NCBI GenBank assembly: GCA_017993955.1
Contig: JAGOLR010000003.1
Span: 6,878 to 70,877, forward strand
Source: Candidatus Omnitrophota bacterium
Lineage (GTDB): Bacteria > Omnitrophota > Gorgyraeia > 2-01-FULL-45-10
Direction of reading: 5' to 3'
DNA: 64,000 nucleotides
Part shown: piece by piece, positions 14,661-61,789 of the stretch
How positions within the stretch are numbered: position 1 is the first letter of the stretch
Layout of the letters: each line of letters opens with the position of its first letter
Program-made: the position numbers and the translations under genes
The notes under the pieces: model-generated
Database searches by the model: none
Told to the model about the DNA's origin: nothing
Seen by the model: only the letters and a program-made list of their open reading frames with translations

Positions 14661-15621
14661 AAAGATATTGATAACAGGCGTTGCCGGTATGATCGGTTCA
14701 CACCTATCCGACCTTCTTCTTGAGAAAGGATTTAAGGTAGTGGGTATGGATGATCTTTCTGTGGGAAGGCTGGAAAATATACAGCATAATTTGCGCGATA
14801 TAAACTTTCGGTTTGTTAAGGGCAGCATCCTAGATACCAAAGCTCTTGAGTCAGCTGCGAGAAACGTGGATACCATAGTTCATCTGGCAGCTTCAAAGAA
14901 GATAGGCGAAGCTGGCGACGCTTTTAAAACGCTTATCATCAATGCGGATGGTACAAGGAATGTTCTTGAGGCTGCCAAAGAAAAACGGTTGAAGGTCATA
15001 TATGCCTCAACTTCCGATGTGTACGGAGTTTCTAAGGATATACCGTTCAGGGAGGATGGGGACCTGGTTATAGGATGCCCTACCGCGAAAAGATGGTCAT
15101 ATGCCATATCGAAAGCATACGGCGAACAGATGGCATTTGCTTATTATAAAGAATTTGGTGTCCCAATAGTTGTTATAAGATATTTTGGAGGCTTTAGCCC
15201 CAGAGCGAGCTTTAGTGCAAGCGGCGGGCATATACCGCTATTTATTGACGCGATACTTAATGACAAGACTATTGTTATACATGGAGATGGCGGGCAGACG
15301 AGATCGATGGGGTATGTGAGCGACCTCGTTGATGGTACAATACGGGCATTGGCGAACCCCGATGCAATTGGCGAAATATTTAATATAGGTAATGATGAGG
15401 AAGTAAGCGTTATAGATTCTGCCTATATGATCCATAAGATCGCAAGTACCGGTAAAAAAATTAAAATAAGGTTTGTACCGCAAAAAAAAATCTTTGGTAC
15501 CTATGAAGATATCAAACGCCGAGTGCCATCGCTGAGCAAAGCCAGGAAACTTCTTGGTTACAGACCCATGGTGAACTTAGCTGAGGGCATAAGGATAACT
15601 ATTGAGGCGCGCAGGAGATGA
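14647..15621 (+). CDS. NAD-dependent epimerase/dehydratase (extended SDR), specificity unknown
   Basis: 'ILITGVAGMIGSHLSDLLLEKGFKVVGMDDLSVG' and 'YAISKAYGEQM' (YxxxK). Confidence 0.75.
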   Translation: MMKTKKILITGVAGMIGSHLSDLLLEKGFKVVGMDDLSVGRLENIQHNLRDINFRFVKGSILDTKALESAARNVDTIVHLAASKKIGEAGDAFKTLIINADGTRNVLEAAKEKRLKVIYASTSDVYGVSKDIPFREDGDLVIGCPTAKRWSYAISKAYGEQMAFAYYKEFGVPIVVIRYFGGFSPRASFSASGGHIPLFIDAILNDKTIVIHGDGGQTRSMGYVSDLVDGTIRALANPDAIGEIFNIGNDEEVSVIDSAYMIHKIASTGKKIKIRFVPQKKIFGTYEDIKRRVPSLSKARKLLGYRPMVNLAEGIRITIEARRR

Positions 15622-16997
15622 CGAAACAGAAAACCGTTTTGCTTATGCATCCACGACCCATATATCCACCTATGGCAGCATTGTATCTAGCCGGAGCGCT
15701 CGAGAGAGCCGGAGTGCGGTGTGAGATTTTGCCATCAAATTGCTCAAAAGACGAGTTGGCCAATGTGGTAGAATCCATAAAACCTGATGTCGTGGCGATG
15801 TCCGTTATAACTTCTCAGGACATACCATTTTTTGTCGGTCATGCAAAGTTTGTGAAGAATAGTTATTCTTCCATTCCAGTCGTGTGGGGAGGCATACACC
15901 CATCTTTGAATGCCGAACAGTGCGCGAGCGAGGATTTTATAGATTATGTGATAACCGGGCATGGCGAAGCCGCGCTTCCTGAATTTATGCAAAACCTCGG
16001 AGCATTGCGGTGCTCGGGTAAGATAATAAGAGGTTCGAGCGTTAAGGATATGGATGGCTATTCGCCGATGTGGGAAAAGATAGATATATCGAAGTTCGTA
16101 TTTCCGGAAGAATATTCCGTGCATAGCCCGGATAAAATAGCTTACGATGCAAACGGTCATAAAAAGAAAAATAATATATTTTATTATTTGATTACAAGCA
16201 GGGGGTGCGTTTATAATTGCACATTTTGCTCGGAACCGCTGGGCGTGATAAACAGGACCAGTGATGGCAGAAGGAATTGGAGTGCTCATTCTTTTGAATG
16301 GGTTAAGCGGGAGGTTACCTATATAAAAAATGAGCTTGGTAAAAAAAATATAAAACTCGACGGCATAGGCATATGGGATGATATGTTCTGGGTTGATATG
16401 GAAAGGTCCTATAGGATACTTGATTTACTTAAGTCGGAGAACCTTGGTTATTTTATAGAAGCCAGGGCAGACCAGCTTTTAAGAGATGACGCAGCGCTGC
16501 TTCGCAAACTGGGAGATACCGGGTGTATACAGGTATTCGTTGGGGCAGAGTCTGCCGACCAGACGACATTAAATTATCTGCGCAAAGGAACCAAATTTAC
16601 GGATTATGTTAAACTGATCGAGTTGGGCGAGAAATGCCATGTTGCCGTAAGGTTGTCCTTAATAATAGGGTTTCCGGGCGAGACAGACGATAGCGTTAAT
16701 AAGACTCTGGATTTTTCGGATTGGGTTTCGGCTAAAAAAGGCTATGCTTCGATAAGCGGCCCAAAAATATTTACTCCATACCCAGGCACTGTTGAGTTTG
16801 ACCGGGCAGTGGCTAGAGGACTTGTTATACCCAAGGATACCGTAGGATGGGGTGAGATACATAGGAAATCCGAAAGATATATCGCTCTATACCCCTGGCT
16901 TACGCAAAATCTTTTGCCCGATACCATAAAAAGGCTTGAGAAGCTTTTAGCTCGGTGCGGAGATTCAGTAAAAACAAACGAACCTGTTTTTAAATAA
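15618..16997 (+). CDS. B12-binding domain radical SAM protein (class B radical SAM)
   Basis: The N-terminal cobalamin-binding-type domain is followed by 'ITSRGCVYNCTFCSEP' (CxxxCxxC). Length is 459 aa. Confidence 0.75.
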   Translation: MTKQKTVLLMHPRPIYPPMAALYLAGALERAGVRCEILPSNCSKDELANVVESIKPDVVAMSVITSQDIPFFVGHAKFVKNSYSSIPVVWGGIHPSLNAEQCASEDFIDYVITGHGEAALPEFMQNLGALRCSGKIIRGSSVKDMDGYSPMWEKIDISKFVFPEEYSVHSPDKIAYDANGHKKKNNIFYYLITSRGCVYNCTFCSEPLGVINRTSDGRRNWSAHSFEWVKREVTYIKNELGKKNIKLDGIGIWDDMFWVDMERSYRILDLLKSENLGYFIEARADQLLRDDAALLRKLGDTGCIQVFVGAESADQTTLNYLRKGTKFTDYVKLIELGEKCHVAVRLSLIIGFPGETDDSVNKTLDFSDWVSAKKGYASISGPKIFTPYPGTVEFDRAVARGLVIPKDTVGWGEIHRKSERYIALYPWLTQNLLPDTIKRLEKLLARCGDSVKTNEPVFK

Positions 16998-17000
16998 TTT

Positions 17001-19286: not shown

Positions 19287-19292
19287 CCCGAG

Positions 19293-20072
19293 GTGCCCTT
19301 GGTATTTTTTGTAATACCTGCCTATAACGAGGAAGAAAACATATCACATCTTCTAGGATCCGTAGAAAAAAAGATGTGCGAGATAGGTCTGCCCTACAAG
19401 ATAGTTATAATAGATGACGGGAGCAAAGACGGCACCAGTTCTCTTCTCCAGGGATATAGTGCAGATTTCCCGGTCGTGCTATTAAAGCATGAAGTTAACA
19501 GGAATGTAGGACAAGTATTCCGGACCGGTTTCCGTTATGTCATAGATCATGCTAAGACCGGGGACGTGGTCATAACAAAAGAATCGGACAATACAGGCGA
19601 TCTTAACCTGTTGCCAGAAATGCTCGATAGGCTCAATAACGGGTCAGATATTGTTCTGGCATCGTGCTATGCCAAAGGCGGGAAGGTGCTTGGCGCCACT
19701 ATTGATAGAGTCATCATGAGCAGGGTGGTTAATTCGATGATGAGGCTCCTATTTCCTGTCAAGGGCGCCAGTACTTACAGTTCATTTTATCGGGCTCATA
19801 AAGTAGATGTATTGAAGAAAGCAATGTCAGTGTATGGTGAAAAACTTATCGAGGAATCCGGATTTACATGCATGGCGGAAATGCTGATAAAGTTTAGCAG
19901 GCTCTCTATGAATATTTCCGAGATACCGATGATTCTCCGATGTGATACAAGGAAAGGCAAGAGCAAGATGAATAAAACCAGAACAATCCTTGCCTATTTC
20001 CGTCTCATATTTAAGGAGTTAAAGATGCTGAATCTGCAGCAGATGAGCGAAGAAAATATGTCAGGATATTAA
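19293..20072 (+). CDS. GT2 polyprenol-phosphate glycosyltransferase (DPM1/ArnC/GtrB-like); GTG start
   Basis: 'FFVIPAYNEEENISHLLGSV...KIVIIDDGSKDGTS'. It has a short single-domain GT2 architecture and is followed by GT-C-like membrane proteins. Confidence 0.7.
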   Translation: MPLVFFVIPAYNEEENISHLLGSVEKKMCEIGLPYKIVIIDDGSKDGTSSLLQGYSADFPVVLLKHEVNRNVGQVFRTGFRYVIDHAKTGDVVITKESDNTGDLNLLPEMLDRLNNGSDIVLASCYAKGGKVLGATIDRVIMSRVVNSMMRLLFPVKGASTYSSFYRAHKVDVLKKAMSVYGEKLIEESGFTCMAEMLIKFSRLSMNISEIPMILRCDTRKGKSKMNKTRTILAYFRLIFKELKMLNLQQMSEENMSGY

Positions 20073-20091
20073 TAAGAGGCGGCGGATTTCT

Positions 20092-21609
20092 TTGATTAAA
20101 AATATTTCCTATATAAATGCAGTGATATTTACACTTCTTTTAGGGCTGGCTTTGTCGGTGCGGATTATCAATATGAATAAGGATTTCACCGGAGATGAAA
20201 CTCTCCTGATCGGCATATCAAAGCTTGATGTAGGCAGTGTGATCCCCGCCCTTAAACATATCGATGCCTATCCGCCTTTAACTTATCTGGCGATCCATTA
20301 TATGATGCAGGTTAGCCATTCCGAAGCCTTCGTGCGGCTTTATTTTGTTTTCTTCGGTATCGGGAATTGTGTATTGATATATTTGATGGCAAGGGAATTA
20401 TTGGATGAAGGATTCGCGAATATAGTGCTCATGCTCTCAGCCTTATCGCCCCTGCTAATTTTTGCATCTCAATATGTGAGAAGTTATATCGATTCGTCTT
20501 TTTGGATGCTTGCCTCAGTTTTATTTATGTTAAAAATATTGAAAGGATCAAACTCCCGATTTTGCTGGATTGGGTATATGATTTCGGCCTCTTTAGCAGT
20601 ATATACTTTTTATTTTTCCGCACTTCTTATATTTACGCAATTTTTATTTGTTACCGTGTTTTTTCATAATAATATGAAGTATCTTGTGAAATGGTATGCC
20701 GCTTTTTTAACAGTCGGCATTCTTTTTTTGCCATGGGCACCTTCAGCCTTGCAGCAGTTTCGCAATGCATCAAGCATAATATTCGATTGGTCGTCAAAAG
20801 GTTTTGTCATAGGTCCGTTTAAGGTGGGGGTATATTTGCGGAATATTTCCGCGATACTGGGTTTTGATCCTTTCTTTATGGTCTTCGAAAAAGGCATAAA
20901 TGCCCATTTCTCCAGGTTTTCTTTGTTGGTAGTTGCTATTATAGCAGCAGCGATATTTTTACTGGCCTTGGTTCGATCAGTCAGAATACTTTTATTCAGG
21001 TTTCAAAGCAGGCGTTATATCGCATGGTTCTTTCCTTTTATGGTTTTTGTCCCGGTTTTATCGGCGTGGGTTGCGGCAGCTCTTATTAATACATATCCCA
21101 CCTCAAAATATTTTGTCGCATTTCATTCGATGTATCTGATACTTTTATCTATTATTATCATTTCCGTGCTGAAAAAAAACAAAGTTTTTGGTTTTATCTT
21201 TGTTTTTACAGTTGTCTTGGCCTATGCTTTAAGAATCCCACAGGCTGTGTCAGTAGAATTCGATAACAAAGGAGCTATGTCTTATCTGCAGGATAAAGTC
21301 GAATCAGGAGCGCCTGTTTTGTGTATACGATCACTGCTAAATGAGAGTATGAAGGACGCGATAAGGCTAGATCCTTTCATAAAATTAAACGAAAAGGGCA
21401 CAGAATATATCGTGTCATCCATGAGTGAATGGAGTAGTGTAAAAAACAGAATTAGCGTTTTTCCAAAAGTGTTAGGATATAAAATATACGGTAACGATGA
21501 AATTTTTGGGGCCAACAAGCTTTTGGACAATCTGGCCGAGGATGCCGGATTTTCCATTTCTAGCGTGAAGAAATTTAAGAATATTGACGTCATAGAATAT
21601 GAAAAATAG
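20092..21609 (+). CDS. polytopic membrane protein, putative GT-C-fold glycosyltransferase (ArnT/PMT-like); TTG start
   Basis: About 11 predicted hydrophobic helices. An early loop carries 'NKDFTGDETLL' with a DE motif. It is located directly after the polyprenol-P GT2. Confidence 0.5.
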   Translation: MIKNISYINAVIFTLLLGLALSVRIINMNKDFTGDETLLIGISKLDVGSVIPALKHIDAYPPLTYLAIHYMMQVSHSEAFVRLYFVFFGIGNCVLIYLMARELLDEGFANIVLMLSALSPLLIFASQYVRSYIDSSFWMLASVLFMLKILKGSNSRFCWIGYMISASLAVYTFYFSALLIFTQFLFVTVFFHNNMKYLVKWYAAFLTVGILFLPWAPSALQQFRNASSIIFDWSSKGFVIGPFKVGVYLRNISAILGFDPFFMVFEKGINAHFSRFSLLVVAIIAAAIFLLALVRSVRILLFRFQSRRYIAWFFPFMVFVPVLSAWVAAALINTYPTSKYFVAFHSMYLILLSIIIISVLKKNKVFGFIFVFTVVLAYALRIPQAVSVEFDNKGAMSYLQDKVESGAPVLCIRSLLNESMKDAIRLDPFIKLNEKGTEYIVSSMSEWSSVKNRISVFPKVLGYKIYGNDEIFGANKLLDNLAEDAGFSISSVKKFKNIDVIEYEK

Positions 21610-22999
21610 TGTAGTTGCTATAATAATTTCAATATTGCTGGCAGCCTTTGTAACAATATTTTTATCGGCTGCCGTATGGATCATGGGTGTGTGGGCTCTT
21701 TGTATATTCCTAATATTTCAGGTTGTGAAGTCATTTGAGGATAGAAAGATAGTATTTTTTACCATCATATGGGCCCTAATCGTAAGGTTCATATTGGTGT
21801 GCCTTTACGGAATCGTTTGCCATAAGATGCATACTCCGGACGTGTTGGGTGATGCGTGCGCTTATAGCTCATATGGCATATATCTGGCAGAGATATTTAC
21901 AGGAAAACCATATCCCAGATTTCCGGTCGTGTCTATACTATGGAATTCGCTGATGGGTGATAGTCCAAAAATGGGGGAGTATCAGGTGAATTGCATAGCT
22001 TATTTGCAGGGCATCGCTTTTTCCGTATTCGGATATTCAACTCTGACTATAAAACTTTTTAATTCGTTATTAGGGGTTATGACTGGTTTTGTAGCGTACA
22101 TTTTTTTACGTAAAAAAATAGGCACTCGCGTAGCAGCCATTTCACTTTTCTTGATCCTCTTCTATCCCAGCATTTTAGTATGGTCTATAACAGGCCTTAA
22201 AGATACGCTGCTTATGTTTTTATCGCTATTGTCGATGACGGCGATGCCGGGCTTGTTTACACTTGGGAAAAAGCTAAAAGAAAAGATAACGCCATGCGTT
22301 ATTATACTACTTTGCGCAATTGTATCGGGTCTTACCAGAAAAGGGATGATGTATTTCTATCTTTTGGTTTTGACAATGACTTATATTTTTATTATGCTTG
22401 CCGAAAGAAAAATTTTAAAGAAAACTTTTGTAGCGCTTTTTTTATTCGCATCGGTTTTATTCCTTACCAATTTAGGTAATGTGAGAAGCGGATTTGCGAG
22501 TATTGCAAATAAGGTTATAGTTTACCAAAAAGGACAGAGCACATCTAAAGGAAAGACCTTTTACAAGGTCTACCCCGATAGGTTCTACAAATTAGTTGGC
22601 CCCAACAAAAGCTTTATGCCGGAGGGACTGTCCTTAGGAGAGGTCGCCGTATCTTTCTTTAAAGGAACGACATATTTTTTCTTTTCCCCATTTCTTACTC
22701 ACTTAAAAATAAGCCGACATTTAATATTCGTTTATGTTCAGGCGCTTTTCTCCTTATTTATCTTTCCGCTCATGATTATCGGAGTGAATTGGTCGCTTCG
22801 CCATCAAATGCGTTCTTTTCTTCCGATGTTCATATTCATGACGTTATCCTGGGCTATCGGAGGATTGATTTCGGGAAATATAGGCACAGCTTTTAGGCAT
22901 AGAGATATGATAATGCCGGCCTATCTTATATTTGCTGTTATAGGATTTTGTAAATTATTTAGGCTGAAAGACGATTTGGAAGACAAGGGCTGGAAATAG
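21599..22999 (+). CDS. polytopic membrane protein, putative GT-C-like glycosyltransferase/polymerase
   Basis: Multiple TM helices are predicted. It is second in a row of three large membrane proteins. Confidence 0.4.
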   Translation: MKNSVVAIIISILLAAFVTIFLSAAVWIMGVWALCIFLIFQVVKSFEDRKIVFFTIIWALIVRFILVCLYGIVCHKMHTPDVLGDACAYSSYGIYLAEIFTGKPYPRFPVVSILWNSLMGDSPKMGEYQVNCIAYLQGIAFSVFGYSTLTIKLFNSLLGVMTGFVAYIFLRKKIGTRVAAISLFLILFYPSILVWSITGLKDTLLMFLSLLSMTAMPGLFTLGKKLKEKITPCVIILLCAIVSGLTRKGMMYFYLLVLTMTYIFIMLAERKILKKTFVALFLFASVLFLTNLGNVRSGFASIANKVIVYQKGQSTSKGKTFYKVYPDRFYKLVGPNKSFMPEGLSLGEVAVSFFKGTTYFFFSPFLTHLKISRHLIFVYVQALFSLFIFPLMIIGVNWSLRHQMRSFLPMFIFMTLSWAIGGLISGNIGTAFRHRDMIMPAYLIFAVIGFCKLFRLKDDLEDKGWK

Positions 23000-24672
23000 T
23001 GCCGAACCAAAAAAATGCTACAACTATAGTCTTGTTTATATTGCTGTTAAATGCAATTCTCACTGTTTATGGTATTAATTGGGGTTTGCCTGATAGGTGG
23101 AATGTCGATGAACAGGTTGCGAAATCTCTAAGACTTATAGCGTCGCGCTCTATATTTACAGTCGTAGACACTGCCCATCCTCAATTATATAACATTGTCT
23201 TGGCGTTATTTATGTTGCCGTATCTTGCAATCCTTAAGATTGCAGGTTATCCGTTGGTGATCATACAATCTGCCGCTTCGGTTTCCTGGATAAATCTTGC
23301 TGCAGCCAGGCCAGATTTTGCGGTGAATATATATCTAATAGGCAGGTCTGCTTCTGTTCTTTTTAACCTGGCAAGCATAATATTGCTTTATCAAATCGCT
23401 AAAATCGCATACGGGAAAAAAGAAATAGCGTTATTTTCTATATTGATAATGTCTTCGAGCATGGGGTTTGTAGAGATGGGGCACTTTGCCAAGGGGACTT
23501 CGTTGTTATTTTTGCTATTATTAAGTGTTGTGTTTTTTATTTTTAAGTCTCTCAAAACAGATTTTAAAAGGAACTATTATATAGCCGCCTTTCTGGCTGG
23601 AAGTTGCGTCGCGACCCAGGCGGATGGTGCATTGTCAGTGTTTTATCTGGCTGCCGGTTTATTAATGCATATTCATGATAAGAAAACCGGTGTAAAAGAA
23701 GTGTCCGGCTACCTTTTGATAAGTTTTTTATTGTTTATAACCGGGATAATCTTATTATGGCCTGCTCTATGGGTCAATTTAAATAAATATTTCATCGGCT
23801 CATTGGCTGCTTATTCTACAAGTCATCCAATCAGCCTGGCTATATTGAAAGAAAAAATAATATCGAACCTAGCGCAGCTTGTTTATATATTTACTCCGTC
23901 TATTGCTTTATTTGTATTTGCAGGTAGTGTCAGCAGTATTTTTACATGGAGGTCCTGCTATCCGTACACGCCTATTTTTTTATTTGTACTTATACCGTAC
24001 TTTTTGATGGCGATATTTTATTTCACCGCTTTCCCCGGATCATCGACAAAATTTTTAATACACGCTGTACCCGCGCTTTCAATATGGGGCGGCGCAGCTA
24101 TCTATAAATTTATTGATTTTACCGGTAGTCTTAGAATATTCAGGATCGCCGTTGTCGCAGTGATGTTTGCTTTTGCTGTGCTGTACACTGCAAAAGGGGA
24201 TGCCGTATTTGCGAAATATGATACAAGATACTCCAGTGGAAATTGGATAAAGGAGAATATTCCTGTTTCGGCATCCTTGGAGCATTTTCAAGAAATCGAT
24301 CTTTTGTTCCCATCTTCCATACTGAAGACCCATCGAGTGATATTTCATGGTAAGGATTCAAGAGATTACGATGGAAAGCGATTTTATGACTCGGAGGACA
24401 TGAGTATTATGAATAGTTATATTAACGATTTAGATCCTGACAGCGTTAAGTCAGATTATATCGTACTGGCTTCCGGAAAGGATTTTTTGATGCCGCTTTC
24501 TATGCAGTCTTCGAACGCAGACCATAATATTATCTATAGACTTCTTGAAGGTTCGCAAGGTAATTACCAACTGGTAAGAAGATTCGAATATGATGAGTCT
24601 GTATTATTTAATCCCAGACCGGCGTATACCGCGCCCGTAATTTCTATTTTTAAACGCATAGAAGAAAGGTGA
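22999..24672 (+). CDS. polytopic membrane protein, putative GT-C-fold glycosyltransferase (ArnT/PMT-like)
   Basis: N-terminal TM helices with 'GINWGLPDRWNVDEQ' in the first loop. It has a large C-terminal soluble domain (about 170 aa). Confidence 0.45.
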   Translation: MPNQKNATTIVLFILLLNAILTVYGINWGLPDRWNVDEQVAKSLRLIASRSIFTVVDTAHPQLYNIVLALFMLPYLAILKIAGYPLVIIQSAASVSWINLAAARPDFAVNIYLIGRSASVLFNLASIILLYQIAKIAYGKKEIALFSILIMSSSMGFVEMGHFAKGTSLLFLLLLSVVFFIFKSLKTDFKRNYYIAAFLAGSCVATQADGALSVFYLAAGLLMHIHDKKTGVKEVSGYLLISFLLFITGIILLWPALWVNLNKYFIGSLAAYSTSHPISLAILKEKIISNLAQLVYIFTPSIALFVFAGSVSSIFTWRSCYPYTPIFLFVLIPYFLMAIFYFTAFPGSSTKFLIHAVPALSIWGGAAIYKFIDFTGSLRIFRIAVVAVMFAFAVLYTAKGDAVFAKYDTRYSSGNWIKENIPVSASLEHFQEIDLLFPSSILKTHRVIFHGKDSRDYDGKRFYDSEDMSIMNSYINDLDPDSVKSDYIVLASGKDFLMPLSMQSSNADHNIIYRLLEGSQGNYQLVRRFEYDESVLFNPRPAYTAPVISIFKRIEER

Positions 24673-24676
24673 AAAA

Positions 24677-37106: not shown

Positions 37107-37110
37107 AGCC

Positions 37111-43578: not shown

Positions 43579-44053
43579 TCGCAAGATCGTTCTGCGGAAT
43601 ATATCTTTGATCGTATACGACTTTGACGGTGTCCTTACGGATAATAAGGTCATTCTCCGCGAAGACGGTATGGAGAGCGTGGTCCTTAACAGGTCAGACG
43701 GTATGGCTATGAGAATGATCATGGATAGAGGGATTGAGCAGATCATAATAACGTCGGAAGTGAACAACATAGCGCTCGCGCGATCAAAAAAGTTGGGGAT
43801 AGCGGCAATGAGCAGGGTGAATGATAAGAAGAGGGCCCTTGTGGAGTATTGCGGTAAGCGCGACGTACCATTGAGCCGGGTTTTGTATATCGGAAATGAT
43901 ATAAATGATCTTGAAGTCATGAAAGCGGTCGGGGTTGCTGCGTGTCCTTCGGATGCGTGCGATGAGATCAGGACGATCGCCGATCTGATCCTGCGTTCGC
44001 GCGGAGGGTGCGGCGTTGTGCGGGAACTATTGAACTCATTACAGGCTTTATAG
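43550..44053 (+). CDS. HAD-IIIA family sugar-phosphate phosphatase (KdsC / nonulosonate-9-phosphate phosphatase-like)
   Basis: 'LIVYDFDGVLTDN' (DxDGV motif) and 'YIGNDINDLEVMKAVGVAACPSDA'. Confidence 0.8.
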   Translation: MRRWFLRKHDRKIVLRNISLIVYDFDGVLTDNKVILREDGMESVVLNRSDGMAMRMIMDRGIEQIIITSEVNNIALARSKKLGIAAMSRVNDKKRALVEYCGKRDVPLSRVLYIGNDINDLEVMKAVGVAACPSDACDEIRTIADLILRSRGGCGVVRELLNSLQAL

Positions 44054-46644: not shown

Positions 46645-46660
46645 AAACAGGAAACAAAAA

Positions 46661-47461
46661 ATGGCCAAATGCTTTAATGGTTTGACGACCGTTAATGTGG
46701 AACTTACGAGTATCTGCAATAAGGACTGTTGGATGTGCGGAAGGCGTAAGATAGATCGGGAATATCCGGCAATTAAACTTGGTTATGGAAACATGGATAT
46801 AAGACTCGTGCGGTCCATAGCTCATCAATTGCCTGATGACATAGTAGTGCAGTTGCACAATAACGGTGAACCATTGATGTATCCGGAATTTGGCACAGCA
46901 GCGAAACTTTTTTCTAGGCAGTTAAGGTGCGCCGATACTAATGGCAAGCTCCTCGTTGAGAAGGCCGATGAGATAATTGGTAACATGGATACGCTTACCG
47001 TATCTACTTTCGAGAATGATGAGGAAGCCGATGAACAGTATAGACTCGTGAAAAAGTTTCTTAAGCTTAAACGTGACAGGAAGCCCAACGTGATAATAAG
47101 GTGCTTAGGAGACGTGAAGCTTGAAAGATACAGGAAGCTGGGTTGTATAATAGCAACGCGCATACTCCACTCTCCGCTCGGTAGTTTTAACTACAGAAAG
47201 AAAGCCACCGTACCGGAGATAGGGATATGCCTGGATCTTTTGAATCATATGGTAATAAGGCGGGATGGGAAAGTGTCGACATGCGTGAGATTTGATCCCC
47301 TCGGCTTAGGAGTCATAGGGGATTGTACCATGGGAAAATTATCGGATATATGGGCCGGGCTAAAACGTAAAAAGTTGATCAATTATCATCTGAAGGGCAG
47401 GCGGGATAAAGCACCGTTGTGCAGTTATTGTGAATTCTGGGGCGTTCCAACAGGGTATTGA
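46661..47461 (+). CDS. radical SAM protein (small, about 266 aa)
   Basis: 'ELTSICNKDCWMCGRR' (CxxxCxxC) and 'HNNGEPLM'. Confidence 0.7.
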   Translation: MAKCFNGLTTVNVELTSICNKDCWMCGRRKIDREYPAIKLGYGNMDIRLVRSIAHQLPDDIVVQLHNNGEPLMYPEFGTAAKLFSRQLRCADTNGKLLVEKADEIIGNMDTLTVSTFENDEEADEQYRLVKKFLKLKRDRKPNVIIRCLGDVKLERYRKLGCIIATRILHSPLGSFNYRKKATVPEIGICLDLLNHMVIRRDGKVSTCVRFDPLGLGVIGDCTMGKLSDIWAGLKRKKLINYHLKGRRDKAPLCSYCEFWGVPTGY

Positions 47462-51434: not shown

Positions 51435-51470
51435 TCGGGCAACCAGTTTATATAAGATCATGGTGAAAAT

Positions 51471-53009
51471 TTGAAGATTACATTGATTTCTCCATATTCA
51501 GATGTGCAATCATTCGGATTGCGTTCCATGTCTTCATGCATTAAAAAAAATGGACATGAAACTCAAATATTGTTTTTGGTGAATCATTTTTCGCGCCCAT
51601 ATAGTAATGAAGTACTTGAAGAAGCGGTCAAGGCATCAAGCGGTTCGGATCTTATTGGTATATCGCTGATGACTAATTTTTTTGATAACGCTGTCCAGAT
51701 AACCCGCAAGTTTAAAAAGGATCTTAATGTGCCGGTAATTTGGGGAGGCGTTCACCCTACATTAAGACCTAAAGAATGTCTTGATTATGCGGACATCGTC
51801 TGTATCGGTGAAGGCGAAACTACCATTGTTGAAGTTTTGTCTGCATTCGAAGAAAAGAGACCGCTTCGCGGGATTAAGGGCATATGGTTCAAGGATAATG
51901 AAGATATTATCAGGAACGAAATGAGGCCGCTTATAAACGAACTTGATGCCATCCCATTCCCCGATTACGACTACGAGGGTCATTGTATATTGAGCGATGG
52001 GCATATAAGTCCAATGAACTCAAAAGTTCTGAACAAATATACACATGGTGCCTATGTTACTATGTCCACAAGAGGTTGCCCTTTTATATGTACGTATTGT
52101 TGTAATAATTTCTTTCATAAATTATATCAGGGCGAGAAGATAATTAGAAAAAGGACTATCGATAATATAATCAAAGAGCTGGTAACGGCAAAAAATATGT
52201 TCCCATTTATCACAAACATGAGGTTTGAGGATGATTGTTTTTTTGTTTACACTGATGAGGAGATAGAAAAATTTAGCCACAATTATAAAAAAGAAGTAGG
52301 CCTACCTTTATTAATTCCCGGGATATCGCCTTCGACGTTCAGTAGAAATAAGTTATCTATGCTTGCGGATGCCGGACTTCGCTGGATAAGAATGGGTATA
52401 CAAACAGGCAGTGAGCGGACTAAACAAATGTACAAGCGTGTCTATTCTAATGAAAAGGTCGCCGATGTTATTAAAACTATCAATGAATTCAAGGACAGGA
52501 TAATGTTGCCTAGTTACGATGTTATTCTGGATAATCCATGGGAAACGGACGAAGACCTTACTGACACTCTGCTCTTCTTGTCGGCCCTTCCCGTTCCATA
52601 TAAGCTAAACCTCTTTTCGCTTGTATTTTACCCTGAAACAGAATTGTATGAGAAGGCGAAGAGGGACGGCATTATTCGAGATGATCTTAATGATGTGTAC
52701 CGGAAATATGTGGCGGGCTGTAAAAAAACCTATGTAAACAATTTGTTCTTTCTCTTGAACGATTATGCTTCGGTAGGGAAACGTTTGCCTCCTGGCGCAA
52801 TTAAGTTGCTTACGGACCAGAAACTTAGGTGTTTGAAGCTGAGTTGGATTATATATGTTTTCTTTAAGATTCGCATCCTTCTTTCCTTCCGGAGGTTATG
52901 GAGAGTCAGCTATTATCTAAGTGAAGCTATGAAAGACATGAAGAAAGGTGAATATGCAAGAATTAAAAGGTTCTTTGGTATAGTGCGCCTGAAAAAGGAG
53001 GGGCAATGA
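51471..53009 (+). CDS. B12-binding domain radical SAM protein (TTG start; the exact start is uncertain)
   Basis: 'STRGCPFICTYCCNNF' and N-terminal 'KITLISPYSDVQSFGLRSM'. Confidence 0.7.
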   Translation: MKITLISPYSDVQSFGLRSMSSCIKKNGHETQILFLVNHFSRPYSNEVLEEAVKASSGSDLIGISLMTNFFDNAVQITRKFKKDLNVPVIWGGVHPTLRPKECLDYADIVCIGEGETTIVEVLSAFEEKRPLRGIKGIWFKDNEDIIRNEMRPLINELDAIPFPDYDYEGHCILSDGHISPMNSKVLNKYTHGAYVTMSTRGCPFICTYCCNNFFHKLYQGEKIIRKRTIDNIIKELVTAKNMFPFITNMRFEDDCFFVYTDEEIEKFSHNYKKEVGLPLLIPGISPSTFSRNKLSMLADAGLRWIRMGIQTGSERTKQMYKRVYSNEKVADVIKTINEFKDRIMLPSYDVILDNPWETDEDLTDTLLFLSALPVPYKLNLFSLVFYPETELYEKAKRDGIIRDDLNDVYRKYVAGCKKTYVNNLFFLLNDYASVGKRLPPGAIKLLTDQKLRCLKLSWIIYVFFKIRILLSFRRLWRVSYYLSEAMKDMKKGEYARIKRFFGIVRLKKEGQ

Positions 53010-53773
53010 CGTTAAAGGCAAGATTGCGGTCCGGTAAGCTTACCATAGGTTCATGGATAACGATAGGAAATTTGTCTGTGGCCGAGATCATGGCTCGCGC
53101 GGGATTCGACTGGCTGGCTATCGACATGGAGCATTCGGCTATAACGCTTGATAAAGCTCAAGAGCTCATCCAGGTCATCGGGCTATGCGGCACTCCGGCG
53201 CTTGTCAGAGTCGGAGAAAATGACCCGGTTGTCATAAAACGGGTCATGGATGCCGGAGCGCAAGGGGTTATTGTCCCAATGATAAATTCTGCCCGGGACG
53301 CTCTGGCGGCGGTGCGCGCGGTCAAGTACCCGCCTATGGGGACGCGTGGCGTAGGCCTTGCGCGGGCGCAGGGATACGGACTGGGTTTTTCGGCCTATGC
53401 CGGATGGGTGAACAGAGGAAGTATCGTGATAGCGCAGATCGAGCATATTACGGCTGTCGATAATCTGGACGAGATCCTGGCTGTTGACGGCATAGACGCG
53501 TTCATCGTTGGGCCGTATGACCTGTCCGCATCGATGGGCATACCGGGAAAATTCGAAGATTTGCGGGTCAAGAACGCCCTTTCCAGGATCATGCGGACGG
53601 CAAAGGTCCATAAAGCGGTCGCTGGATTTCATGTCATACCGCCTAATGCGAAGGAAGTGTTGAAGAAAGTGCGGGAAGGTTACAGATTTGTTGGGTTCAG
53701 TCTTGATACACTCTTTCTGGGAGCGAAGTGCAGAGATGAATTCTCATTATTAAAGGACGGGTTAAAAAGATGA
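53006..53773 (+). CDS. HpcH/HpaI-family class II (pyruvate-dependent) aldolase
   Basis: 'GSWITIGNLSVAEIMARAGFDWLAIDMEHS' and 'VIVPMINSARDA' match the 2-keto-3-deoxy-acid aldolase family. Confidence 0.8.
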   Translation: MTLKARLRSGKLTIGSWITIGNLSVAEIMARAGFDWLAIDMEHSAITLDKAQELIQVIGLCGTPALVRVGENDPVVIKRVMDAGAQGVIVPMINSARDALAAVRAVKYPPMGTRGVGLARAQGYGLGFSAYAGWVNRGSIVIAQIEHITAVDNLDEILAVDGIDAFIVGPYDLSASMGIPGKFEDLRVKNALSRIMRTAKVHKAVAGFHVIPPNAKEVLKKVREGYRFVGFSLDTLFLGAKCRDEFSLLKDGLKR

Positions 53774-54537
53774 ATATAATCGGAATCATACCCGCGCGTA
53801 TGTCCTCAAGTCGCTTTCCCGGCAAACCTTTGGCAGAGATCGCCGGCATCCCGATGATAGGGCATGTCTATTACCGCAGTACGATGAGCAAGATGTTGGA
53901 CCGGGTCTATATTGCAACATGTGACGATGAGATTAGAAGATATGCCGTTTCGATAGGCGCCGGGGTCATTATGACGGGCGCTCACCATCAGCGGGCTTCG
54001 GACAGGGCTGCGGAGGCGATGTTGAAGATCGAGCGACAAAATGGCAAGAAGGTAAGCGTTGTCGTCATGATACAGGGTGATGAACCGATGCTTACCCCGC
54101 AAATGATAGATCTTGCGGTGAAGCCTATGGTGAAAAACAGACGGATACAGGTGGTTAATCTTATGTCGCCAATGAAGGATGTCTGCGAGCATGAAGACCC
54201 CAACGAAGTCAAGGTGGTCGTGGATAAGGAAGGTTATGCGCTCTATTTTTCCAGAGAGCCGATACCTTCAAGAAAGAAAGGTGCGACGCGAATCCCTATG
54301 CTGAAGCAGGTCTGTATAATACCCTTTAGGAGGGATTTTCTGATCAGATTTAATAAGCTTACCCCGACACCGCTAGAGATAATCGAATCTGTGGATATGC
54401 TGAGAGTGCTTGAGCATGGATATAAGGTAAAGATGGTGATGAGCCTGAATGATACGTACAGCGTCGATACGCTGGACGACCTGCGATGCGTGGCGAAACA
54501 TCTCATAAGAGATCCTCTAGTGAAGAGATACGCATAA
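53770..54537 (+). CDS. kdsB: 3-deoxy-manno-octulosonate cytidylyltransferase-like (CMP-Kdo synthetase family, KdsB-like)
   Basis: 'IIGIIPARMSSSRFPGKPL', 'IQGDEPM' and 'VKVVVDKEGYALYFSREPIP' are collinear with E. coli KdsB. Confidence 0.8.
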   Translation: MNIIGIIPARMSSSRFPGKPLAEIAGIPMIGHVYYRSTMSKMLDRVYIATCDDEIRRYAVSIGAGVIMTGAHHQRASDRAAEAMLKIERQNGKKVSVVVMIQGDEPMLTPQMIDLAVKPMVKNRRIQVVNLMSPMKDVCEHEDPNEVKVVVDKEGYALYFSREPIPSRKKGATRIPMLKQVCIIPFRRDFLIRFNKLTPTPLEIIESVDMLRVLEHGYKVKMVMSLNDTYSVDTLDDLRCVAKHLIRDPLVKRYA

Positions 54538-54551
54538 GAGAGGCGCGTGCT

Positions 54552-55490
54552 ATGGATGCCGGAAAAAGTTCAACAGTCCCTGCGAAATGCGAACTCTGTG
54601 ATGCTTCGATACGCAAGCCCTCGATTATCGGTAATGATGTATACGGCGGCAGCGCGGATCAAAAATTCTACCGGTGCCCGCACTGCGACGTAGCTTTTTT
54701 ATATCCCCGCATGAGCGAGAAGGATGAAAAACGTTTTTATGCTCAGGAATTCGAAAGATTTATGGAGAAACGCGCCGGAAAAGATTTTGATTGGAGAGGC
54801 CCGGAGGCCCATATCCAGTCGAATCAGAAGCAATACGCGAGGCGCCTTCCGTTCTTTGAGGAGCTTCTGTCGCCGTCCTTGAGCGTTCTCGAAGTAGGTT
54901 GCTCATCCGGTTTTATGCTCTTGCCGTTGAAAGAACGGGGATTGGATGTAGTAGGGATAGAGCCATCCGGAGGTTTTTCCGGATTTTTGAAACAGAAAGG
55001 CATAGATGTCTATAGTTCTATGCAGGACTTAAAAGACAGTGCCGTAGACGTGAAAGAGTTTGACCTGGTGATGCATTTTTTTGTTCTGGAGCATATGCGA
55101 GATCCGGTAAAATTCATGCGAGATACGCTTGGATTTTTAAAACCAGGTGGTGTCATGATATGCGAGGTCCCAAGCAGAAGCGATCCGCTGCTTACCATAT
55201 ATAATATCCCGGCATTTCATAAGTTCTACTGGTCTGTGGCACATAATTATTATTTTAATCGTCCATCACTGGAATATGTTTTATATCAAGTGTGCGATGA
55301 TTTCGAAATTCTGCCGGAACAGCGTTACGACATATCCAATCATATGACATGGGCATTGGAAGGAAAACCCGGGGGGCAGGGGAAATATACGTCGTTTTTT
55401 ACGCCCGAACTGGAAAGCTCTTATCTGGAGAGTATGAAGAGGACCGGACACTGTGATACGATGGTAGTCCGCATTTGTAAAAAAGGATAA
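54552..55490 (+). CDS. SAM-dependent methyltransferase with an N-terminal CxxC...CxxC zinc-ribbon (C-methyltransferase-like architecture); alternative start at 54486
   Basis: 'CELCDAS...YRCPHCDVAF' and 'VLEVGCSSGFML', 'FDLVMHFFVLEHMRDP'. Confidence 0.7.
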   Translation: MDAGKSSTVPAKCELCDASIRKPSIIGNDVYGGSADQKFYRCPHCDVAFLYPRMSEKDEKRFYAQEFERFMEKRAGKDFDWRGPEAHIQSNQKQYARRLPFFEELLSPSLSVLEVGCSSGFMLLPLKERGLDVVGIEPSGGFSGFLKQKGIDVYSSMQDLKDSAVDVKEFDLVMHFFVLEHMRDPVKFMRDTLGFLKPGGVMICEVPSRSDPLLTIYNIPAFHKFYWSVAHNYYFNRPSLEYVLYQVCDDFEILPEQRYDISNHMTWALEGKPGGQGKYTSFFTPELESSYLESMKRTGHCDTMVVRICKKG

Positions 55491-55495
55491 ATGAT

Positions 55496-59890: not shown

Positions 59891-59894
59891 CATC

Positions 59895-60686
59895 ATGCCC
59901 ATGATCACTATCCTGAAGAATATTTTCGCTCACCCCTTAACGAAGGGACTCGATCTCAACGATCCAAAGACTACGGAATTGAGACGCAGGATCGTAAGAG
60001 AAAAAAAATTTTTAAGAAAGGTATACGAAGAATGGTATTTGCAGTTATCTGATTCCATGCGTGACACTGACGGAGTGGTTTTGGAAATAGGCGCGGGAGC
60101 GGGGTTCCTTGAAGAATATATGCCAGGCATTGTAAAGTCAGATATTTCTAAAACTACGGGTATCGATGTGGTTATGGATGCCTGTCGGCAATTTCCTTTT
60201 TCCGATGGTTCCCTAAGTGCCATAGTAGGGATTAATGTCCTTCATCATTTATCGGATCCGAAAAAGTTTTTTTCCGAAGCTTCTAGGTGTGTGCGAAAGA
60301 ACGGGTGCATCTATATGATAGAGCCTTGGGTAACGTCGTGGTCGTCTTTTGTATACAAAAGATTGCATGACGAACCTTATTTTCCTGATGCTGCTGATTG
60401 GGGGTTTGTCAGCAATGGACCTCTAACTAGTGCCAACAGTGCTTTGCCGTGGATCATGTTTGAAAGGGATCGCCGGGTATTCGAGCGGGAATTCCCCGCC
60501 TGGAAGATCAGCGGGATTAGTTTGCAAATGCCGTTTCTGTATTTGTTATCCGGAGGGGTTTCGTTGAGAAGCCTGAGCCCTGGCTTTACTTTTTCGACCT
60601 GGAAATGCATTGAAAAGCTATTTGGGCCTTTCATGCAGCGGTGGGCCATGTTCGCGAATATAAAACTTGTTAATGCGAATAAGTAG
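59895..60686 (+). CDS. class I SAM-dependent methyltransferase
   Basis: 'VLEIGAGAGFLEEYM' and 'IVGINVLHHLSDP'. Confidence 0.7.
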   Translation: MPMITILKNIFAHPLTKGLDLNDPKTTELRRRIVREKKFLRKVYEEWYLQLSDSMRDTDGVVLEIGAGAGFLEEYMPGIVKSDISKTTGIDVVMDACRQFPFSDGSLSAIVGINVLHHLSDPKKFFSEASRCVRKNGCIYMIEPWVTSWSSFVYKRLHDEPYFPDAADWGFVSNGPLTSANSALPWIMFERDRRVFEREFPAWKISGISLQMPFLYLLSGGVSLRSLSPGFTFSTWKCIEKLFGPFMQRWAMFANIKLVNANK

Positions 60687-60718
60687 CGCTGATCCATGGC
60701 GAAAAATAAGGAGAAAAG

Positions 60719-61789
60719 ATGCTAAAAAGTGCATGGTCAAATATGGTACGAAAATACAGTTTTTTTCGTTATTATGTTCGACCTTTTCGTTTTTCGATGT
60801 TTCGGTATCAGATGGGGCAACGTTTAAAATCACGGCTAAGCATTTCTGGTGGGTTTAGGATCATAGATCTTGCGATAACATACTCTTGCAATCTTCATTG
60901 CAAACACTGCTCTGCTTCTGTGCTGGAAAGCGAACGAGCTCCGCTCGGCCTCGAAGAGTACAAAAAAATCACATGCCAAGCAAAATCTTTTGATAATTTA
61001 TCGTACAATATAACCGGTGGCGAGCCGCTTATGGTCGAATGGCTTGACGATCTTATACCTGTGCTTGATCCTGCGCGTCATTTTATCAGTATTCAGACGA
61101 ATTGCATGCTTTTAAGTGCAAAAAGGGCAAAACAATTAGCTCGTCTAGGCGTGAATTGCATAACAACGAGTCTGGATAGCGCAGATGAAAAGGAACACAA
61201 TCATTTTAGAGGGTCGTCAGACTCATACAGGAAAGTGCTCGAAGGTTTGGATAATGCGATTAAGGCGGGGATGAGTGTGCTCGTCGGCGGCACCGTGACT
61301 CACCAGAACTTGCGGTCTGCGGAGCTACAACGGTTAATAGAGAAGGTGAATAGTCTTGGCGCGATCTTTCTTTTTAATATTGGCGTGCCATGCGGTGAGT
61401 GGAAAGATAACCGGGATATGTTGTTCAGGGATGACGACAGGGACTATCTTTTGAAGCTCATGGAAACATATCCGATGACATCTACGGATCACGAAATAAA
61501 TCGTCATACCGTAGGATGCCCCGCAGGAAAAGAGAAGGTATATATCACTTCATATGGCGATGTATTGCCATGCCCATTTATACATGTTTCGTTTGGTAAT
61601 GTGCGTACAATGCCTCTAGCAGAAATTATCGCGCGAATGAATAAAATAAGTTTGTTTGGAAAATACGCAAACATATGCGTTGCTGCTGAAGACAGGGATT
61701 TTCAGAAGAATGTGCTTTCGAGGGTTGGTTCTGTGTCTGAGCCGAATAGAGCTCCAATTTCCTATAAAGACGTATACGGGGAGCTGTGA
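60719..61789 (+). CDS. radical SAM protein with a C-terminal Cys-rich (SPASM/twitch-like) region
   Basis: 'ITYSCNLHCKHCSA' (CxxxCxxC) and 'GGEPLM', later 'GCPAGKEKVYITSYGDVLPCPF'. An AAGGAG Shine-Dalgarno lies upstream. Confidence 0.7.
   Translation: MLKSAWSNMVRKYSFFRYYVRPFRFSMFRYQMGQRLKSRLSISGGFRIIDLAITYSCNLHCKHCSASVLESERAPLGLEEYKKITCQAKSFDNLSYNITGGEPLMVEWLDDLIPVLDPARHFISIQTNCMLLSAKRAKQLARLGVNCITTSLDSADEKEHNHFRGSSDSYRKVLEGLDNAIKAGMSVLVGGTVTHQNLRSAELQRLIEKVNSLGAIFLFNIGVPCGEWKDNRDMLFRDDDRDYLLKLMETYPMTSTDHEINRHTVGCPAGKEKVYITSYGDVLPCPFIHVSFGNVRTMPLAEIIARMNKISLFGKYANICVAAEDRDFQKNVLSRVGSVSEPNRAPISYKDVYGEL

Follow-up and report, generated by a model that had tools for sequence, protein, structure and literature searches.

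The glycan locus and its seven radical SAM enzymes

Contig JAGOLR010000003.1 of the Candidatus Omnitrophica metagenome-assembled genome (MAG) GCA_017993955.1 carries, between positions 6,878 and 70,877, a 64-kb stretch (the window; coordinates below are counted from its first nucleotide) in which seven radical S-adenosylmethionine (SAM) enzymes are encoded among genes for glycan biosynthesis. The 61 open reading frames (ORFs) tile the whole length of the window and share the plus strand; the GC skew stays positive from end to end, and just four gaps between genes are longer than 25 nt (75, 58, 36 and 32 nt). No tRNA, Rfam element or riboswitch was found in the 64 kb. Every gene assignable by Pfam, NCBIfam or Protein Data Bank (PDB) sequence matches belongs to glycan biosynthesis, and the window is a single co-directional cell-surface glycan biosynthesis locus of ~64 kb. 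At least three of its radical SAM families, represented by genes g41, g36 and g47, are widespread, uncharacterized and linked to nonulosonic acid genes.

The general glycan content comprises RmlB/RmlD-like genes, GT2 and GT4 glycosyltransferases, three tandem GT-C (PMT_2) membrane proteins, DegT aminotransferases, GNATs, a deacetylase, an AsnB-like amidotransferase, a GDP-mannose 4,6-dehydratase and two further short-chain dehydrogenases/reductases (SDRs). A first inspection of the DNA without database searches (the sequence-only reading) had described nonulosonate synthases, cytidine monophosphate (CMP)-sugar synthetases and TylF-like O-methyltransferases; by Pfam there are two NeuB-like and four cytidylyltransferase-like genes in the window, in agreement with that description, and just one TylF gene. 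A NeuB-family synthase together with a CTP_transf_3 protein, taken as the signature of a generic nonulosonic/ulosonic acid module, is present in the form of g38, g44 and g45. No flagellin, Maf, Wzx/Wzy or oligosaccharyltransferase is encoded by the 61 genes.

The CxxxCxxC motif occurs in exactly seven of the 61 ORFs (g18, g36, g40, g41, g47, g50 and g59), at residues 197, 32, 235, 225, 35, 203 and 57 respectively; these are the seven places where the motif had been noticed, and all have radical SAM domain support. A second copy in g36, at residue 330, belongs to a SPASM region. Four of the proteins (g18, g40, g41 and g50) have a B12-binding domain (E 2e-21 to 2e-13; PF02310 scores of 76.5, 50.6, 68.9 and 61.6 bits respectively, all above the 32.1 cut-off) followed by a Radical_SAM domain (E 1e-14 to 9e-22). 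The Radical_SAM PF04055 gathering score is passed by six of the seven, the exception being g47 (20.7 bits vs 29.5, E 5e-4), whose 34-sequence family profile nonetheless matches the BtrN and NifB cores. With CX9-15GX4C plus CX2CX5CX3C counted as a full SPASM pattern, and the first part plus CxxC only as a twitch, g36 has the full seven-cysteine pattern and g47 and g59 have shortened, twitch-like ones. The seven enzymes are thus split into four with B12-binding domains and three of the SPASM/twitch type (g36, g47 and g59), the small g47 being BtrN-like. The four B12-domain proteins are those recognized earlier, and the separate class then given to the small enzyme at 46661 is dropped. Likewise, the 12 or more methyltransferases counted in the sequence-only reading are reached only by including the B12-domain radical SAM enzymes, since the Pfam count of class-I methyltransferase domains is eight for 15618-61789 and 11 for the whole window.

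Classification with Pfam and NCBIfam profiles, one of the checks proposed with that reading, confirmed the B12 and SPASM domains and placed none of the seven enzymes in a named family. The NCBIfam models covered BchE, HpnJ, HpnR, PhpK, AprD4, KedN5, C-methyltransferases of peptides that are synthesized ribosomally and modified post-translationally (RiPPs), the MCR glutamine methylase, the ladderane lipid protein, NirJ/AhbD, PqqE and the sactipeptide maturases; none of the curated cut-offs is reached, and scores are three- to ten-fold lower for all families touched (best bits vs cut-off: g41 144/481 for BchE, g18 99/600 for PhpK, g40 91/481 and g50 101/578). With scores so far under the cut-offs, membership in a named B12-domain radical SAM or SPASM family is rejected. 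The four B12-domain enzymes share only 21-26% pairwise identity and therefore represent four distinct families, and the same values rule out a recent paralogue expansion.

The named families bear on two explanations in which the substrates are not sugars. The B12-domain enzymes could modify lipids or tetrapyrroles in the manner of BchE, HpnJ/HpnR or ladderane/tetraether lipid enzymes, their adjacency to glycan genes being incidental. By E-value their top NCBIfam matches are BchE, HpnJ, PhpK and a 'lipid biosynthesis B12-binding/radical SAM protein', and some homologues carry the JGI name 'anaerobic Mg-protoporphyrin IX monomethyl ester cyclase', but the scores are 3 to 6 times under the family cut-offs, the Pfam domain survey found no lipid or tetrapyrrole genes in the window, and the neighbourhoods in 80 + 80 other loci consist of glycan genes. 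We regard this explanation as very improbable. Grouping with the bacteriochlorophyll or hopanoid methylases had been named as an outcome that would count against sugar substrates, and no BchE, HpnJ/HpnR or PhpK cut-off is even neared, the best score being that of g41.

An equally improbable explanation is that the enzymes mature a RiPP whose gene is in or close to the locus, with the ABC transporter g49 as its exporter. RiPP maturases (SkfB, SuiB and CteB) are among the solved folds nearest to g36 and g59, an ABC exporter is present, and there are weak NCBIfam matches to RiPP C-methyltransferase families. These family scores are all far under their cut-offs, however, g49 has no peptidase domain and resembles HepA/MsbA most, and the partners conserved across other genomes are not peptides but NeuB, CMP-synthetases and aminotransferases. 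There is also no space for a precursor gene, with gaps of at most 75 nt and no small unassigned ORFs between genes; the sequence-only reading, which had named small precursor peptides nearby as an outcome against it, had likewise seen no precursor-peptide-like small ORFs. A RiPP context is rejected for want of a precursor slot and a peptidase-containing ABC exporter.

Gene neighbourhoods of the g41, g47 and g36 families

Gene g41 (40193-41650) encodes a B12-domain radical SAM enzyme of a 462-residue family; its probable true start is at 40262, as in homologues, about 23 codons inside the long ORF. The best 120 homologues are 60-73% identical and nearly all 462 residues in length, and an alignment of eleven has a mean column identity of 76%. 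A scan of one genome per GTDB species gave 305 relatives, of which the best 80 loci (59-74% identity) were used. Their hosts include Omnitrophota, Phycisphaerae, Nitrospirota, Desulfobacterota, Geobacterales, Bacillota, Campylobacterales and Parcubacteria among the bacteria, and Woesearchaeota, Methanolobus and Promethearchaeota among the archaea. The family is ~60% identical in loci L015, L035, L041, L023 and L051 (L numbers denote homologous loci), which belong to Woesearchaeota, Methanolobus, Promethearchaeota (Asgard) and Parcubacteria. Such identity across bacteria and archaea implies horizontal transfer of a strongly constrained enzyme between the domains.

Among the 39 g41 loci with full 10-kb flanks, a NeuB or CMP-synthetase gene lies within 10 kb in 33 (85%), with NeuB in 31 and CMP-synthetase in 30; a NeuC-like epimerase and a PtmE-like CBS-nucleotidyltransferase are each present in 27 and a Maf-like protein in 11. 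The gene most often directly adjacent to a g41 homologue encodes a CMP-synthetase (26 cases). Unsupervised clustering of the neighbours reproduces this ranking and adds PglD-like acetyltransferases and PtmA-like SDRs. The WbuX/HisH/HisF acetamidino trio is found in about 12 of 49 g41 loci, and 19 of 50 g41-seeded loci have at least two B12-domain radical SAM genes.

Most g41 homologues are inside loci of the Campylobacter-type leg/ptm kind (LegB, LegC, LegH, LegG, LegI, LegF, PtmE, PtmA, Maf), typically complete legionaminic acid/flagellin glycosylation islands, two cultured species being among them. In the cultured Desulfoscipio geothermicus DSM 3669 a flagellin gene lies upstream of the locus, whose order is Maf/PseD-like, radical SAM, LegB, LegC, NeuD, NeuC, NeuB, PtmE-like and CMP-synthetase, with LegB at 487 bits (cut-off 475) and LegC at 437 bits (cut-off 420). 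In Geomonas silvestris Red330 a Maf-like gene follows the g41 homologue and a flagellin gene is close by, and a Bacillota MAG with a g41 homologue has a flagellin glycosylation island of similar kind. The window differs from these loci: it is without LegB, LegC, LegG and PtmE, its NeuB-like genes are short, and a canonical legionaminic acid pathway was not found in it (best LegB 196 bits vs 475, best LegC 231 vs 420). The features that define it (LegB, LegC, a hydrolysing epimerase of the NeuC type, a full-length NeuB/LegI and a PtmE-type guanylyltransferase) are present in related loci such as L037. To our knowledge the described leg/ptm pathway does not include any radical SAM enzyme.

The most likely reaction of g41 is a cobalamin-dependent one in which an unactivated carbon is methylated. 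Methylation is favoured because the N-terminal domain matches true cobalamin binders in sequence, because Leg5Ac7Ac, the usual companion pathway product, has no vicinal diol on which a diol dehydratase could act, and because the loci abound in SAM chemistry. The matches of the family profile to OxsB and TsrM take in the N-terminal B12 domain (profile positions 21-361 and 2-360 respectively), and the Pfam B12-binding score of g41 is strong (69 bits). Sequence identity to any solved class B methylase is 17-22%, with no curated cut-off reached, and the known members (GenK, Fom3, TokK, CysS, TsrM and MgmA among them) work in antibiotic clusters, whereas the window enzymes have a primary cell-surface glycan/nonulosonic acid context.

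The B12-domain enzymes, and g41 in particular, may instead act on sugars without methylating them, as AprD4-like dehydratases or by deoxygenation, epimerization or rearrangement, and so produce deoxy or keto positions after condensation. AprD4 is a cobalamin-independent radical SAM 1,2-diol dehydratase that carries out the C3' deoxygenation of apramycin with a dedicated reductase, its gene being part of an aminoglycoside cluster. In PDB sequence searches it comes first for both the g41 profile (3e-21) and g40 (2e-7); it is similar in size to g41 (454 vs 462 residues) and has a sugar substrate. Furthermore, none of the B12-domain enzymes reaches a methylase family cut-off, and B12-domain radical SAM enzymes that do not methylate exist (BchE, OxsB and HpnJ). 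The AprD4 match is nevertheless to the radical SAM barrel alone (profile positions 167-397), leaving the N-terminal domain outside, and g41 scores only 104 bits against the 500 of the NCBIfam AprD4 model. The predicted structure, a Rossmann domain followed by a barrel, has AprD4 as its best structural match in a tie with the cobalamin methylases TsrM, MgmA and CysS, and structure comparison was therefore rejected as an arbiter between methylase and dehydratase. We hold the non-methylating alternative to be a serious though less likely rival, for g41 as for the other B12-domain enzymes, and retain methylation as the preferred reading of g41. The equation of class B enzymes with C-methylation in the sequence-only reading is accordingly plausible but an assumption, given the equal AprD4 match of the g41 model.

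Gene g47 is the last member of a four-gene cassette. The first gene, g44 (44074-44976), encodes the second short NeuB-like synthase (Pfam NeuB 2e-77; NCBIfam NeuB 251 bits vs a cut-off of 400; no SAF domain), followed by g45 (44957-45682), a PseF-like CMP-ulosonate synthetase (CTP_transf_3 9e-21; PseF 118 bits vs 206), g46 (45667-46644), a class IV aminotransferase of the BCAT/D-amino-acid type (Aminotran_4 2e-48, under the NCBIfam cut-offs), and g47 itself (46613-47461, probable start 46661), a BtrN-like twitch radical SAM enzyme and putative sugar C-H dehydrogenase. The g47 protein has a Pfam SPASM match (8e-7) and the pattern C206x17C224...C270xxC273, the spacing of which fits one auxiliary cluster. 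BtrN is the best PDB match of its family profile (E 2.4e-12), with two aligned stretches spanning the core and the twitch CxxC; the curated NCBIfam BtrN family has no match to g47.

In the BtrN reaction, a secondary alcohol group on an aminocyclitol becomes a ketone, and an aminotransferase afterwards replaces the ketone by an amine. The small size, the twitch cysteines and the pairing with an aminotransferase liken g47 to BtrN and its partner in the formation of 2-deoxystreptamine for butirosin, and in its sequence g47 looks like a dehydrogenase, not a methylase. The differences are that g47 stands in NeuB/CMP-synthetase cassettes, not among aminocyclitol genes, and that its partner is a class IV or III aminotransferase rather than one of the DegT/BtrS type.

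A scan of metagenomes gave 244 relatives of g47, the best 80 at 64-81% identity, and 41 loci of at least 9 kb were counted. A short g44-like NeuB is present in 37 of the 41, a CMP-synthetase in 34 and a class III or IV aminotransferase in 29. The genes mostly run from NeuB through CMP-synthetase and aminotransferase to the radical SAM gene, in some cases with a methyltransferase before the last, and eight of the loci also have a g41-family gene. The aminotransferase is of class IV (g46-like and adjoining the g47 homologue) in 14 loci and of class III in 16, with both in one locus only. Because two unrelated classes of aminotransferase swap beside one type of radical SAM enzyme, the conserved need would be for a transaminase acting on a ketone made by that enzyme, and we lean slightly toward a route in which the ulosonic acid is aminated after condensation (or at the precursor level) by way of g47 and g46. 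In locus L143 (Ga0247840_10001120) five B12-domain radical SAM genes stand in a row downstream of a NeuB/CMP-synthetase/aminotransferase/g47-type cassette.

Gene g36 (35081-36433) encodes a radical SAM enzyme with a full SPASM region and an extra C-terminal domain. Pfam identifies Radical_SAM (1e-22) and Fer4_12, and the SPASM cysteines are C268...C286 and C321xxC324x5C330x3C334. Its AlphaFold2 model (mean confidence, pLDDT, 91) has a generic SPASM fold, and a fold search returned nothing more specific. In the model, residues 383-439 form a three-stranded sheet with helices after the SPASM region, reminiscent of small ligand- or peptide-binding winged domains. The family has 462 matches at E<=1e-20. 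A protein that NCBI lists under a Candidatus Omnitrophica bacterium is 100% identical to g36. Homologues with 37-49% identity adjoin a CTP_transf_3 gene in three unrelated contigs (L090-L092), together with NeuB, a NeuC-like epimerase and a TylF gene 57-72% identical to g39; one of these contigs, from Campylobacterales, also holds a g41-family gene. The recurrence of g36 with TylF suggests a two-step modification at one position. A further homologue (P0301, 39% identity, 453 residues) was found in the transcriptome of the anaerobic eukaryote Anaeramoeba flamelloides and could be a symbiont contamination or a gene transfer.

The radical SAM enzymes might also act late, on an assembled glycan, a lipid-linked intermediate or a glycosylated protein. 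In favour of this are the ABC exporter, the three GT-C membrane proteins and the many other transferases of the window, the additional C-terminal domain of g36, and the Maf-like flagellin glycosyltransferases that adjoin some g41 homologues. In contrast, a CMP-synthetase is the commonest direct neighbour of g41 homologues, homologues of g47 and g36 are within compact NeuB/CMP-synthetase cassettes, and every radical SAM enzyme needs SAM and a cytoplasmic reductant. Late action is in our estimate improbable. The gene neighbourhoods support substrates that are sugars, with a focus on nonulosonic/ulosonic acids, in a pathway that has not been described. This supports the expectation that sugar substrates were the most likely, which is consistent with the conserved NeuB/CMP-synthetase neighbourhoods of g41, g36 and g47 and with the occurrence of g50 in glycan loci. 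It is likewise in keeping with the earlier statement that the pathway could not be mapped onto a described one, no curated radical SAM family being represented and the canonical legionaminic acid genes being absent.

Other radical SAM enzymes and neighbouring genes

Gene g40 (38661-40259; Radical_SAM 5e-18, B12-binding 2e-13) has syntenic copies in L005, L007 and L093 (61-67% identity) and L066 (38%), and is kept only in these Omnitrophota-type loci. The product called for g50 (51471-53009; Radical_SAM 3e-18, B12-binding 9e-17), which is of the same domain type, has 493 residues, with a probable start at 51528. Its family, of ~505 residues, is 47-68% identical across Elusimicrobia, Nitrospina, Nanoarchaeota and others, and two of the three homologue loci inspected (Nitrospina and Nanoarchaeota) are glycan loci, one with Wzy, a flippase and a GT2 and the other with an STT3 oligosaccharyltransferase. 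The HpcH aldolase next to g50 in the window was considered as a fixed partner and rejected, since it is not found beside more distant g50 homologues.

The B12-domain enzyme g18 (15618-16997; B12-binding 2e-21, Radical_SAM 1e-14) is from a rare family, with about 11 cluster representatives at >=37% identity among 1.84 billion and no relatives found on viral contigs in the scan. It is flanked on one side by a WecB-type 2-epimerase/SDR pair and on the other by a GNAT, a deacetylase and a methyltransferase. Gene g59 (60719-61789; Radical_SAM 7e-17, SPASM 5e-8) lies between methyltransferases and has a truncated, twitch-like SPASM (C267x17C285 and C320); its best PDB sequence matches are SkfB (2e-10) and BlsE (5e-8). 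The enzymes g18, g40 and g59 are assigned to sugars by their position in the window locus only.

The segment from g34 to g53 is syntenic with L005, L007 and L093 at 41-82% identity, and L007, from an Omnitrophota MAG, is the nearest syntenic locus. The small winged-helix protein g34 (33310-33804; MarR_2 2e-4, CudC 70 bits vs a cut-off of 218; 47-57% identity in L005, L007 and L117) opens the ulosonic acid module. It is followed by g35 (33813-35081), in which a cytidylyltransferase-like N-terminal part (CTP_transf_3 4e-16, residues 5-127) is fused to a class-I methyltransferase (residues 242-359), a fusion also present in L005 and L007. Downstream of g36 are g37 (36435-37106), a divergent cytidylyltransferase-like protein (CTP_transf_3 7e-5, PseF 54 bits vs 206), and g38 (37057-37959), a short NeuB-like enzyme for condensation of phosphoenolpyruvate (PEP) with an aldose, which has no SAF domain (Pfam NeuB 1.5e-64; NCBIfam NeuB 226 bits vs 400, over profile positions 2-273 of 329 only). 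The TylF-family sugar O-methyltransferase g39 (37956-38639; TylF 5e-21) is 57-79% identical to TylF genes beside g36 or g41 homologues in L005, L007, L091 and L092.

Between g41 and the g44-g47 cassette are g42 and g43. The first (41662-43578) encodes a PFTS-motif polysaccharide biosynthesis protein of ~630 residues (TIGR04417 23.5 bits vs a cut-off of 100), whose L005 homologue has PF27878 PFTS_polysacc. A similar PFTS protein is directly downstream of the g41 homologue in 11 of 73 loci (including L005, L006, L007, L022, L045, L057, L075 and L077). A role for g42 as a Maf-like nonulosonate transferase gained no support (hhalign probability 0.2, no PDB sequence or Pfam match). The HAD phosphatase g43 (43550-44053) is in the KdsC/Kdn-9-phosphate phosphatase family, with sequence matches to PDB entry 3mmz (3e-26), BT1713 (3e81; 1e-21) and KdsC (8e-21).

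Beyond the cassette, g48 (47458-49629) encodes a 723-residue protein with an N-terminal cysteine ribbon and a methyltransferase domain at residues 138-264 (Methyltransf_23 3e-16); no Pfam match was found in its C-terminal 450 residues, and the homologous fragments are two separate genes in L005, L007 and L093. The ABC exporter g49 (49632-51434; ABC_membrane and ABC_tran) is a fusion of transmembrane and nucleotide-binding domains whose closest families, HepA (476 bits vs 725) and MsbA (390 vs 602), are exporters of polysaccharides or lipid-linked compounds. Following g50 are g51 (53006-53773), a class II aldolase of the HpcH/HpaI family (HpcH_HpaI 3e-37; HpaI 182 bits vs 369), and g52 (53770-54537), which belongs to the CMP-Kdo-synthetase (KdsB) family (PRK13368, 298 bits, over the cut-off of 255). 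This aldolase-KdsB pair recurs in L093 (67/73% identity) and L123 (63/69%) and may form a CMP-activated 3-deoxy-ulosonic acid by way of a pyruvate aldolase, so bypassing KdsA/NeuB. The methyltransferase g53 (54486-55490; Methyltransf_23 2e-17) has an N-terminal Zn-ribbon (C35xxC38...C64xxC67), and a methyltransferase like it is present in 16 of the 41 g47-seeded loci. The Zn-ribbon C-methyltransferase-like genes of the sequence-only reading are recognizable in the N-terminal CxxC...CxxC of g48, g53 and g60, although none of these matches Methyltransf_13/14.

Further modules are found outside this segment. A WbpA-like dehydrogenase, a DegT aminotransferase, a GFO/WbpB-like oxidoreductase, a hexapeptide acetyltransferase and a WecB-type 2-epimerase are grouped at 2206-8189 and 13596-14660, and look like the UDP-2,3-diacetamido-2,3-dideoxy-uronic acid pathway (WbpA/B/D/E-like). 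At 19293-24672, where the GC content falls to 0.38 and the AT skew is negative, a GT2 with weak similarity to ArnC/polyprenyl-phosphate transferases is followed by the three tandem PMT_2 (GT-C) membrane proteins, and a UXS/ArnA-like SDR, a deacetylase, a GNAT and a DegT aminotransferase flank them in an Arn-like lipid-carrier arrangement. The Arn-like reading of g17-g26 was set aside as weakly supported (ArnC 54 bits vs a cut-off of 529). Small winged-helix proteins are encoded inside the operon at 8190-8681 (HTH_24) as well as at 33310-33804 (the MarR_2/CudC-like g34), and each has counterparts with 45-57% identity in related glycan loci (L056 and L145; L005, L007 and L117). Two small overlapping ORFs at 8587-9403 (115 and 84 residues in the source record) have the SAM-methyltransferase-like motifs VLDVGCD and EVLEHLENF, neither has a Pfam match, and together they are probably a frameshifted or decayed methyltransferase.

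A predicted radical SAM route to nonulosonic acids

All seven radical SAM enzymes are probably sugar-tailoring enzymes, as predicted from their sequences and surroundings, and five of them (g36, g40, g41, g47 and g50) are in or beside two ulosonic acid modules. From family membership, g38 and g44 would condense PEP with a sugar or sugar phosphate, g43 would remove the phosphate, and g45, perhaps with g35 and g37, would activate the acid as a CMP-sugar. The predicted role of g47 is to abstract a carbinol hydrogen from the ulosonic acid or its precursor, so that a secondary alcohol becomes a ketone, which g46 would turn into an amine, as the similarity to BtrN and the recurrent cassette suggest. 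The g41 enzyme would act on the free or CMP-activated nonulosonate, likely by C-methylation, with other radical C-H functionalizations also possible, and g36 with the TylF protein g39 could form a second recurrent tailoring pair. The remaining enzymes g40, g50, g18 and g59, with 11 class-I methyltransferases, may further modify the ulosonic sugar and other sugars of the locus; the GT2, GT4 and GT-C transferases would then assemble the product and g49 would export it.

More broadly, we propose tentatively that anaerobic bacteria and archaea may make a new class of nonulosonic acids by radical chemistry on the nine-carbon acid or its CMP ester, the steps being those of a BtrN-like dehydrogenase with an aminotransferase, giving amino groups after condensation, and of one to five cobalamin-dependent radical SAM enzymes, adding C-methyl or larger alkyl groups. 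Amination of this kind would be independent of oxygen and an alternative to the classical combination of a nucleotide-hexose 4,6-dehydratase with an aminotransferase. A precedent for oxidation followed by transamination is the formation of Kdo8N in Shewanella, where an oxidase and an aminotransferase (KdnB/KdnA) yield an amino-ulosonic acid. The locus also resembles the Kdn/Kdo routes (the Kdn-9-phosphate synthase and phosphatase BT1714/BT1713 of Bacteroides, KdsC and KdsB) in that g43 matches BT1713/KdsC and g52 exceeds the KdsB cut-off, but here the oxidant would be a radical SAM enzyme, and the synthases are NeuB-like rather than KdsA. The window locus thus combines features of aminoglycoside-type radical SAM tailoring, of leg/ptm loci and of the Kdn/Kdo routes, and is a member of none of these groups.

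Several observations weigh against the sugar-tailoring interpretation. NeuB and CMP-synthetase are both missing within 10 kb in six of the 39 g41 loci, and the argument that the g41-NeuB linkage is far above chance draws on the few copies of NeuB-family genes per genome and not on a random-locus control. A class III/IV aminotransferase is missing in 12 of the 41 g47 loci; of these 12, a DegT-type aminotransferase is present in four, and three are truncated on the upstream side. The third of the g50-family loci inspected is not a glycan locus, and comparative support for g18 and g59 is lacking. The g41 model fits the cobalamin-independent AprD4 no worse than the cobalamin methylases. The 2-epimerase of the window is of the WecB type only, with none of the NeuC type reaching its cut-off, and the NeuB-like proteins have no SAF domain; with LegB and LegC also below their cut-offs, the sugar made by the window is something other than canonical legionaminic acid, even though g41 shares 60% identity with enzymes of canonical legionaminic acid loci. 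Finally, domain content, absence from the named families and conserved neighbourhoods are observations, from which we infer every reaction and substrate.

No literature that connects radical SAM enzymes to the biosynthesis of nonulosonic, legionaminic or pseudaminic acids was found in a search outside of which most subscription journals lie. Uncharacterized radical SAM genes are listed incidentally in glycan regions of Campylobacter fetus and C. jejuni HS:19 (PMC6321876, PMC8743553), and a preprint notes modules of sugar metabolism and radical SAM domains in giant Omnitrophota proteins (10.64898/2026.06.07.730766).

The hosts of the three radical SAM families include Omnitrophota, Nitrospirota, Desulfobacterota, Bacillota, Campylobacterales, bacteria of the candidate phyla radiation and several archaeal lineages. 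Flagella, capsules and lipopolysaccharides carry nonulosonic acids (sialic, legionaminic and pseudaminic acids), which control motility, immune recognition and phage attachment; we know of no described nonulosonic acid pathway that uses anything other than polar chemistry. If the link is functional, it would reveal a hidden diversity of sialic acid-like sugars (C-alkylated, aminated after condensation, or deoxygenated) and new biocatalysts for the unactivated carbons of complex sugars, and the 'BchE-like' and 'YgiQ-like' annotations of thousands of MAG proteins would need correction. Geomonas silvestris Red330 and Desulfoscipio geothermicus DSM 3669 are cultured hosts that allow a direct test. 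Under the tentative proposal above, legionaminic acid/flagellin glycosylation pathways would have their first radical SAM enzyme in the g41 family, and the finding would extend radical SAM tailoring to sialic acid-like surface sugars.

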